Part shown: piece after piece, positions 60,961 to 64,000 of the stretch
How positions within the stretch are numbered: the stretch's first letter is position 1
How the letters are laid out: each line of letters begins with the position of its first letter
Source: Schmidtea nova
Lineage: Eukaryota
Length of the DNA: 64,000 nucleotides
Assembly: GCA_044892505.1 (NCBI GenBank)
Contig: CM097883.1
Span: 358,298,001-358,362,000 of the forward strand
Direction: 5' to 3'
Translations under genes and position numbers: made by a program
Notes under the pieces: model-generated
Database searches by the model: none
The model's input: only the letters and a program-made list of their open reading frames with translations
Told to the model about the DNA's origin: nothing

Positions 60961-61754
60961 GGGTTTTTTGTGAATTTCTGTTTAATCATTATCTGTTTAT
61001 CTTTATTTGATTTTGATCTTAACGGATATCTTGTCATATTTTCCGTTGGTACCTTTTTAAACCGATTTACGTGAACAATTATTGTTCCCGCCTTTTTATT
61101 GTTTTGTGGGCGTAATTTTAGATTAGTCTGTGTAGCATCACACACTAAATATCGTCCTTTAATCAGTTTCCCAGTTTTGAAATCAAGTGCGACTCCTTGT
61201 AATTGTTCCATGATGTCCATGCCAATCAAACATTTGACCGGGCTTTTCCTCATCACTGATACCCAATGAGTTATTTCTTGGTTTCCAATATTTACTTTGA
61301 CTTCTAATTTTCAGACGATGTTTACTACGTTGTGTTTCGTTGACTTAATTATTTTTGTTGTTGGCTTTATTTCCGCTTTCTTTTGTCTAGTCAAAAAACT
61401 TTCCGATACTATGTTGTGACTTGAGCCTGAATCTAGTAACGCTTCAACTTTTCGCTTTTTAAACTGTATGTCTACGCGAGGTCGTTTTCCTCCCAACTCT
61501 ACTGTCATTAATGCGTAACTACATGGTAACCCAAGCATGTTCATTCTTTCAATTTCGGCACTTGATGGTTCAATCTTTTCTAATTCGACTTTTATCTCAT
61601 CAACTGGTTTCATTTCTCTCAATTTTTCACTTGGATATATAACAGCTGTTGGCATAAATGTCGGTGTGTACCATTTAGAAAGAGTATCAACTCCAGTTAG
61701 TTTTGGCATTGGTTCAAGCAAGAACCTGGATTCGGGTTCTATTCTACTTTTCAT
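60960..61754 (-). pseudogene. Retropepsin protease (ALLDSGS...CLIGMDIM) fused by deletion to an integrase GPY/F-like tail
   Basis: KVEALLDSGSSHNIVSE, one TGA at 61311, then LIGMD; then KGRYLV...NLKL....IVHVNRFKK. Confidence 0.8.
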
Positions 61755-61849
61755 TATGCTCCTTTGGAAAACTTTTGGCTCTGATCTGCCGCCGTTGTTC
61801 TCATTACTATGGTCATTATTTTTATCCTCGTGATCGCATACTGATTCTT

Positions 61850-63755
61850 CACTTTTCGCTCATTTTTCAATTGTGCCCGTACATTTGCCATTTTTTTATA
61901 TTGATGACTCGAGATGAAGAATCTTGCCAAAAATGGAATACATCCAATAATCATTTTCCATGACCATCCGGAAATTGTATATATCCTGTGAGTGGACAAT
62001 ATTTGTGATATTACTACCTTTACTGTTACTGCTATTACATAAATACCAATTAAACCTGCACATGCTTGTCCCGAAAATATAAATTTACCCCAAATCTTTT
62101 CCATTGTTTTGTAAGTAGCTCGTTTAAAATCATCAGGTGTCAGCAAATATTCGTAATTAACTTTTCCTTCTCCATTCGGCAATATTTTATCAATCATTTC
62201 TGAAATCACACGTTCCTTTTTTGACGGAAATAACAAATTTCTTTGGGCCTCTTCAATGTCTTCGCTCACATATAGACCCATTTGTGCCATTTTGTTCATT
62301 GATGTAAAATTTGTTAAGTATTCTAAATTCGTTAATTCCAGTTTGTCTGGCGTTCTTACTCCTCTGTAACCTGGTAACGCTATCCATGAATCTTGTGTTA
62401 ATCGATATAATGGAGCTAATAATCGATTATATTGTAAGATTTTCGGTTTAACTAGTTCTTCAAGCAATATTCTGGTTATCGATTCCATGAATCGTAGTTT
62501 CCCGCCAACACTTACTGACAATTCGTTTGTACATTTCTCATATTTTGCGATTTTTACTGTAATTTCTTTGCATTTGTAACTGTATAGCGCTTCTCCAGAT
62601 TCTTGCAAATACACCGTTTTCTGAGATTAGCATAGGTGCTACTATGTTTGGATTGGTAATCGCCATAGCCATTCGATTTCGGAGTATTTCTTTATTTAAT
62701 TTACAATCGTTCAATATCATTTCCCTGTATATGTTCTCCATGATGTTTTGGCTAAAATGAAATAAATAATCAATTTTATTGTTAAAATAATGGGTTAATT
62801 TGATATCATCCCTATGAATTCTCGTTTAGGCTTCCTGTACAATTGTTTTCGACACGTATACTCCTTTGTAATTCGTTGCATAAACTATTTGGCCACACTT
62901 ACTTTTTTATAAAACGCATACTATCCGTTGGTAAGGTTGACATCAAAACCGTCGCGGTTTGTCCTGTCCAAACTGGAGTTCACCTGACTGTAACATTCGG
63001 TTTATAGTTAACTTTGAAGTTGTCTGGTCTCTCCCTAAATTGCTCTCCAATTAATTCCTTAAAATTCATTGTTTTTAAATGAGCTAGGTTACATATATTG
63101 GTTTTGACATCGTAAACAAGAATTGATTCTCCTGTGTGACAGCTAGTTTGTTTATATTACAAAATGGATGAGTTTGTAGTTATCCTGTATCATCGTGAAA
63201 AGATCCTTCAAATACTCTCAGTTCCGTTAAATATTCCTCTATTACTACTGTTTGTTTAATCACTTTATCTTTTATTTTGTACGGTTCACCCTCACAATCG
63301 CCGTCAGATTTCATCACTCCCTTTACTAACAATGTTTCTCGAATTTGATGATTTACTTTGGCTTTCAGTCGAATTTCAGGACTGATTTTTAATTCCCCCG
63401 TTTGAAATGCTGTTAAGCAATTTACTAGCAATACGTTCACTGGTCGTGGAATAGCGTGCATTTTTATTAATGATGTGTGGCTCCATTTCCCACAAAAGAA
63501 TACAAAAGTGGTTTGTTTTACAATGCATTCTCTAACTTTAGTACGTCGTAAATCTGACTCTTGATACACGTGGTATTTTACTTCGTTTTCAATCTTCAAT
63601 TTTCGAGGATATGCGTCTGGGCACTCTGACATATCAACCACTGAATAAATCTTTCCCATTTCTGTTTGTGAACAATCGTATGCCACTAATGATGTCGTTT
63701 GTGTAATAACTGCACATAGAATAATCATCATAAACATTATCCTGGGGAATATCAT
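61850..63755 (-). pseudogene. Chuvirus-like class III fusion glycoprotein (env-like)
   Basis: Signal peptide, then AYDC, C...F.CG..SH, C..AF.TG, DGDCEG, GEALYSYKC..I.V, C.NEL.V......F.E.ITRIL, GLY...D....L.FP, TM AGLIGIYVI..., GWSW. The motif order matches chuviral and retroelement-captured glycoproteins as I recall them. Confidence 0.8.
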
Positions 63756-64000
63756 AGTTTTCCTCAGTTTTGGACTTACTTTTTCGTTTATTTGTCTTTG
63801 AGGTGAATCATCATCTCTTTGTTTCTTTCTTTTCTTTATTACAGATGAATTCAGCGCTCTCCAGCCTCTAAGCTCTTTAATCCACTTTATTAGATACTCG
63901 TTTACCATTCTTGCCGCAGTATCGATTAAACTATCGAACTTATCTGACCTTGTAAATGCTTGAATGCCAATCTCGGATACAACATATGTTAAGCTGGTTA

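Follow-up and report, generated by a model that had tools for sequence, protein, structure and literature searches.

A decayed copy of a young Ty3/Gypsy family of the GAG-ENV-POL kind in the genome of Schmidtea nova

The 64,000-nt stretch of the Schmidtea nova genome analysed here (assembly GCA_044892505.1, contig CM097883.1, positions 358,298,001-358,362,000, forward strand; hereafter the window) contains on its minus strand, from position 64000 to about 57900, a single decayed retroelement copy. In all probability this is a dead copy with an internal deletion, from a Ty3/Gypsy family that was recently active and is of the published GAG-ENV-POL kind (Burro-like errantiviruses with a glycoprotein B (gB)-type envelope). 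Full-length copies encode capsid, a Bcl-2-like domain, a glycoprotein, the enzymes and a second membrane protein in one frame of ~3,400 aa. The domain order, the single frame, the long terminal repeats (LTRs), the 4-bp target duplications and the tRNA-Trp primer site of the family are established. A Gypsy element with a chuvirus/gB-type glycoprotein ahead of its protease is real but already published and is no discovery; what our results add is a more complete inventory of parts for a young family of which dozens of copies are unbroken.

Copies, domain order and age of the family

A search of the host's own genome with the window finding gave 1,278 candidates, and 38 of the 39 other places scored were colinear over nearly the whole query at 85-87% identity, the remaining one covering it from base 429. 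Fourteen of the best-scoring copies were examined in full, and in every one the order is capsid, CCHC knuckles, middle region, Bcl-2-like domain, glycoprotein, protease, dUTPase-like region, reverse transcriptase (RT), RNase H, integrase and post-integrase region. A second open reading frame (ORF2) is present in 13, both LTRs were found within the fetched stretches in 12, the first frame (ORF1) is unbroken in 6, and one copy carries an additional gag piece downstream. A less biased check with the Pfam glycoprotein model alone placed 29 of 68 scored places in stop-free frames of 3,381-3,401 aa, and 10 loci found by the Pfam search and a distant-homolog search form four further subfamilies, whose RT is 89-95% identical to that of the first, and show the same order in 10/10. 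The initial annotation had proposed that the envelope precedes protease, RT and integrase, possibly behind gag, and this order has held: gag lies upstream of the window copy, intact copies inside paired LTRs keep the arrangement, and a glycoprotein 3' of integrase was looked for in the full-length copies, where it stands before the protease in 14/14.

Hallmarks of Metaviridae present in the family are paired TG...CA LTRs, a short target duplication, a tRNA primer site, a polypurine tract and the pol order protease-RT-RNase H-integrase (from Pfam positions on P0002 and from the 14 copies). The LTRs measure ~0.8-1.0 kb; in 12 pairs, among them one longer repeat of 1.4 kb, the two sides are 99.5-100% identical. 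Target duplications of 4 bp can be made out at flanks other than AT runs, and the primer site matches the 3' end of the host tRNA-Trp. Copy A spans 16.6 kb from LTR to LTR, within a family range of 16-17 kb. RT-RNase H finds its best PDB match in Ty3 RT (E 1.5e-86, in a library that may lack BEL/Pao RT). From the near-identical LTR pairs, the target duplications, the primer site and the Ty3-closest RT-RNase H, it follows that the family is a young, recently transposing Ty3/Gypsy group. A BEL/Pao identity is unsupported by the Pfam matches and the Ty3-closest RT. A search of sequencing runs returned four runs with a match, all from one study and none of RNA, and was uninformative on expression. 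Host tRNA-Trp genes form a very large tandem array with a period of ~282 bp (C3 from 128022754); their 3' pattern has 1,984 exact matches genome-wide, all on one strand, and the first 100 among the matches listed are all in the array.

The anatomy of ORF1 was taken from copy A (3,401 aa, as the two overlapping stretches P0001 and P0002). Retrotrans_gag at 100-179 is followed by four CCHC knuckles, a weak SUMO-like match at 782-820 (PF11976, E 0.034), the Bcl-2-like domain at 954-1052, a basic linker, a first hydrophobic signal at ~1088-1109, PF24664 at 1093-1738 with a transmembrane segment (TM) at 1648-1679, and a retropepsin at ~1850-1945. After these come RT, RNase H and integrase. The post-integrase part opens with a second hydrophobic segment (~3009-3030) and continues with an ectodomain of 280 aa, a Ser/Thr stalk and a TM (~3345-3380) before it ends in a short tail. 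The dUTPase-like label is given by position and from the Burro review, with no Pfam match. ORF2 has 483 aa and carries an RNase_T (DEDDh) domain in another subfamily (E 1.5e-5) and in a distant metagenomic relative (L130; E 1.4e-5), and its protein from the first subfamily (P0003) gave no Pfam match to RNase_T. Compared between subfamilies, RT and integrase show a ratio of nonsynonymous to synonymous divergence (dN/dS) of 0.025-0.04 and the glycoprotein one of 0.05-0.08; the Bcl-2-like domain has 0.19-0.32 and the post-integrase protein 0.21-0.33. These values are rough, with dS near or at saturation; every tested part is under purifying selection.

The copy in the window

The window copy is an older, dead, internally deleted member of the family, 87% identical to the nearest subfamily over envelope and protease and 73-74% further downstream. 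The initial annotation had described an ORF entering from the window edge on the minus strand, and its parts are indeed there: a basic stretch (63836-63822), a signal-like segment from 63755, a Cys-patterned ectodomain, a TM from 62086, a hydrophilic linker and the protease motif LLDSG (61439-61425). They do not form a single open frame, since 64000-61158 contains 2 stops (63182, 61313) and 4 frame changes (near 63150, 62903, 62600 and 61856). The protease piece gives weak matches to aspartyl-protease models (E 0.01-0.03). RT, RNase H and the integrase core are absent, as the protease end joins the integrase C-terminal region at ~61160 with ~2.9 kb gone; blastn against full-length copy L019 skips from position 658 to 3591, and tblastn skips from residue 219 to 1188 of P0002. 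This loss, the extent of the element to ~57900 and the Bcl-2-like identity of the frame at the edge had been overlooked. The upstream parts of the element fall outside the window (stretch L011): the remaining Bcl-2-like sequence, the long middle region, zinc knuckles, capsid, primer site and remnants of the 5' LTR. The features of the family in the window are as follows.

63855-64000, minus: C-terminal half of the Bcl-2-like domain, BH2-like motif at 63872-63861 (profile match to PDB Bcl-2; PF00452 below cut-off)
63756-63836, minus: basic, hydrophilic linker (sequence)
63690-63755, minus: internal signal-peptide-like hydrophobic segment with a putative cleavage site (hydropathy 2.45 in a full-length copy; kept in 4 subfamilies and L130)
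62087-63689, minus: chuvirus/gB-type fusion glycoprotein ectodomain, broken by the stop at 63182 and frame changes at ~63150, 62903 and 62600 (PF24664)
61991-62086, minus: glycoprotein TM segment (hydropathy 2.33)
61470-61856, minus: hydrophilic linker from glycoprotein tail to protease, frame change near 61856 (sequence, full-length comparison)
61163-61470, minus: retropepsin, LLDSG at 61439-61425, stop at 61313 (weak aspartyl-protease matches, motif)
61158-61162, no strand: deletion junction, ~2.9 kb lost, with dUTPase-like region, RT, RNase H and integrase core (blastn and tblastn against full-length copies)
60936-61157, minus: remnant of the integrase C-terminal region (comparison with a full-length copy)
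59691-60935, minus: second in-frame type I membrane protein, broken; signal-like from 60935, three ~90-aa repeats that are likely fibronectin type III (FN3), Ser/Thr stalk, TM at ~59840-59760, short tail
57912-59339, minus: ORF2 with a DEDDh (RNase_T-like) exonuclease domain, broken (tblastn 55% to P0003; RNase_T E 0.03)
45720-47233, minus: decayed LTR and 3' untranslated pieces of the family, with more at 48453-49245 and 51946-52114
~2912-5000, minus: sister copy, 82% to the same subfamily as the window copy
1058-1338, minus: family LTR remnant downstream of the sister copy

The sister copy comprises the glycoprotein C-terminus, TM, protease (its catalytic Asp reads as Asn), dUTPase-like region and an RT start that a deletion has joined to the beginning of the integrase core, so that the RT and integrase starts reported there by the initial annotation are present.

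Membrane proteins, proposed processing and rival explanations

The glycoprotein of a full-length copy matches PF24664 (Monjiviricetes_fusion) over profile positions 5-632 of 653 with E 8e-88, and the chuvirus-like glycoprotein first noticed in the window is confirmed by its two open ectodomain pieces, which match the same model far over the cut-off (E 2.6e-23 and 2.8e-37). In the copies and subfamilies compared it is flanked by signal and TM and stands between gag and pol. Class III fusion proteins share a gB/G-like trimeric five-domain fold with fusion loops, and this fold is predicted here from the Pfam match and from the class assigned in print to a relative with 80% identity. On the other strand, ~10 kb past the window edge, are fragments of a more distant glycoprotein from the same family (36-39% identity; L012:975-2546, plus). 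Just upstream of the signal, a profile of seven Bcl-2-like sequences matches Bcl-2 and Bcl-xL structures over the Bcl-2 homology regions BH1-BH2 (best E 4e-4); the BH2 Gly-Trp is kept, and a BH2-like motif directly before the signal occurs also in two metagenomic homologs.

The post-integrase protein consists of three tandem repeats of ~90 aa, and these likely have the FN3 fold, whose hallmark is a tandem ~90-aa seven-strand beta-sandwich with an E-F Leu...Tyr motif. The structural model is nearly all beta without long helices, and its matches (VIA-align wide) are dominated by FN3. Homolog searches restricted to near lengths, with the family or L130 protein as query, found nothing, and a profile search returned 7 unnamed proteins, of which the three examined are metagenomic singletons. 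In the subfamily with a 3,232-aa frame (L111:2692-3483) the protein is shortened, having lost most of its first two repeats and kept signal and TM, which makes it a natural test case for repeat number. The metagenomic relative L130 (L130:2-10282) has an open frame over 3,426 aa with three aspartic protease domains, an RNase_T ORF2 and, besides the glycoprotein, two signal-ectodomain-TM modules, the counterpart of the family protein giving fn3 leads. Profile comparison of the family region with the two modules was not significant (E 0.15 and 0.18); they appear alike in position, topology and separate FN3 leads, a likeness that falls short of demonstrated homology.

The mechanism we propose builds on the general rules of polyprotein processing in the endoplasmic reticulum (ER). 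The ~3,400-aa frame is predicted to cross the ER membrane by means of two internal signals and two TMs and to be cut into its parts there. The first signal (aa ~1088-1109) would thread the glycoprotein into the ER, where signal peptidase would free its N-terminus, and would itself stay on the upstream fragment, from Gag to the Bcl-2-like domain, as a tail anchor like that of a cellular Bcl-2 protein. The TM at aa ~1648-1679 would bring the chain back to the cytosol, where retropepsin could release Gag products, protease, RT-RNase H and integrase, and the second signal (aa ~3009-3030) would begin a second type I surface protein, again freed by signal peptidase. Release of the glycoprotein by signal peptidase or the viral protease, already put forward in the initial annotation, is plausible on this layout. 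The glycoprotein may serve membrane fusion, the FN3-like protein particle attachment or modulation or mimicry of a host receptor, and the Bcl-2-like domain could delay apoptosis of the producing cell. It is possible, though on balance doubtful, that flatworm-type retroelements carry a two-protein entry apparatus in one polyprotein, a class III fusogen and a captured FN3-repeat attachment or receptor-mimic protein. If true, this would be a division of labour like that of herpesviruses and paramyxoviruses, of which the available parts of the literature searched hold no description for any reverse-transcribing element. On this reading, the two modules and three proteases of the distant relative L130 suggest an old and modular design.

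The adjacency of glycoprotein and protease could have been a tandem or nested junction, with the envelope really 3' of an upstream copy's integrase, as the window is dense in nested repeats and its copy is itself rearranged by deletion. However, the order recurs inside single LTR pairs in all 14 copies and 10 loci, in many cases without a break in the frame, the window copy has gag upstream, and unbroken frames running from gag through glycoprotein to integrase refute such a junction, which we give practically no chance. That the same element moves only within cells, keeping its membrane proteins for host modulation (apoptosis, receptor decoy, cell-cell contact) and not for infectious particles, is unlikely but deserves some weight: its Bcl-2-like, SUMO-like and FN3-like parts resemble host-manipulating cargo, the element is known from sequence, and equal quantities of Gag, Env and Pol would suit particle assembly poorly. 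The glycoprotein, on the other hand, is full length and almost as constrained as integrase, and its signal and TM are kept in every subfamily compared. Finally, the post-integrase protein occupies the usual place of a Gypsy envelope and draws Atlas leads to Baculo_F (12% of cluster members; 0.89) and Fusion_gly (0.84), as expected if it were a degenerate ancestral envelope of baculovirus-F or errantivirus type in an element with two envelope genes. Both leads are under 0.9, and the all-beta model, the tandem repeats, the FN3-dominated matches and the fn3 leads of the L130 counterpart make this origin very improbable.

Several results also weigh against the GAG-ENV-POL family with two membrane proteins as we describe it. 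The 14 copies were chosen with a glycoprotein-protease query, which biases the sample towards that adjacency. With a single frame, Gag, Env and Pol should be made in equal amounts, an unusual and unexplained situation, and processing and function are predicted from the anatomy of the frame. PDB sequence searches with the glycoprotein, single and profile, returned no viral glycoprotein and just weak unrelated matches such as centrin. PF00452 is matched by 5 of the 7 Bcl-2-like members at E<=1, the best (2.6e-4) still below the curated cut-off, and BH1 is degenerate. As for FN3, the model has low confidence (pLDDT 57.5, pTM 0.32), its structural matches have middling Z with repeat 1 barely tested, Pfam finds no fn3 in any family member, a host-FN3 HMM fails to score above shuffles in 3 of the 6 members and is marginal in the other 3, and one Atlas search pointed instead to a baculovirus-F or class I fusion protein (0.89).

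Known elements and neighbouring sequences

The initial annotation called the architecture non-canonical; that it lies outside what is known is not supported. The gag-env-pol order has been described in planarian Burro elements, with the envelope in frame between gag and pol (PMC6431247), and in Ty3/gypsy elements with gB-type ENV from Nematoda, Bryozoa and Platyhelminthes, which do not form one clade and include six Schmidtea mediterranea families (PMC13524379, eLife 2026). The S. nova family belongs with these herpes simplex virus/gB-type errantiviruses, its ENV lying between gag and pol with signal and TM and being homologous to the published set. Smed_errantivirus_1 and its kin share the Ty3/Gypsy pol, the gB/chuvirus-type ENV between gag and pol and the many near-identical copies, and the ENV in the supplement is identical to P0001 residues 1141-1391 at 202 of 251 positions, ungapped and counted by eye. 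The S. nova family goes beyond the available description in its single frame, Bcl-2-like domain, tRNA-Trp site, FN3-like second membrane protein and exonuclease ORF2; the main text, as available, does not mention Bcl, polyprotein, single ORF, exonuclease, fibronectin or FN3, and its table gives no primer tRNA for the six Smed elements. Probably these elements share the extra features, though unannotated.

With Burro/GYPSM1 the family shares, from the accessible account, one polyprotein with Gag and CCHC knuckles, SUMO-like, BCL2-like and in-frame env parts, protease, dUTPase-like region, RT, RNase H and integrase (PMC6431247), and it keeps this order in one frame, with a weak SUMO-like match and a dUTPase-like region placed by position. 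It differs in size (16-17 kb and ~3,400 aa against >30 kb and 4,873-5,140 aa), so it is not a giant element, and no Pfam match to the Burro-type cargo BIR, MATH or ankyrin was found in ORF1 of copy A. Burro env, which has matches to mononegavirus fusion glycoproteins, was likened there to gypsy/F-type Env, whereas the S. nova envelope is of the PF24664/gB type; the available text, its figure aside, names no post-integrase membrane protein. Nematode endogenous retroviruses (Sacco et al. 2022, as cited in PMC13524379) are metaviruses with an ENV/POL order likewise flipped after capture of an RNA-virus glycoprotein, in another host phylum. The mosquito element Anakin carries the same glycoprotein family but belongs to BEL/Pao (Belpaoviridae; PMC7642597, PMC10084718, PMC12440569), unlike the present family, whose RT is closest to Ty3 among solved structures. 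For arthropods, the available part of PMC10084718 reports no clear case of a Gypsy element capturing such a glycoprotein, in line with the background of the initial annotation. An FN3-like post-integrase protein is not mentioned in the available literature text searched, though figures, Repbase entries or supplements could already annotate it, and PMC8532177 mentions neither envelope nor fibronectin.

Our additions to the inventory are the two internal signals within one frame, the tRNA-Trp primer, the exonuclease ORF2, a Bcl-2-like domain positioned in such a way that the envelope signal could act as its tail anchor, and, behind integrase, a conserved surface protein of FN3-like type. The residual interest lies in this second membrane protein, which, if an attachment factor, would offer a testable answer to the question of how the gB-type fusogens of invertebrate retroelements locate the cells they target.

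The window also contains other elements. ORFs on the minus strand at 12750-24454, recognised by eye from motifs, presumably belong to a Polinton/Maverick (pieces of protein-primed DNA polymerase B, adenain-like protease, major and minor capsid-like proteins, integrase, packaging ATPase). Polinton/Maverick-like pieces flank other family copies as well (L018, L026, L028, L093). Near-identical ORFs that we take, by eye, to encode Penelope-like RT and GIY-YIG lie at 10660-12267 (plus) and 35503-37855 (minus), with a fragment at ~1950-2900 (minus) that interrupts the sister copy. A different, broken Gypsy element occupies 40226-44930 (plus), its RT identical to the family at 63 of 155 positions, with a mariner-like transposase ORF inserted at 42916-43689. 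On the minus strand, 7860-9017, 56557-56865 and 25316-25633 are, as labelled by eye, presumably hAT-like transposase pieces, a Tc1/IS630-like DDE piece and a protein-kinase-like exon.
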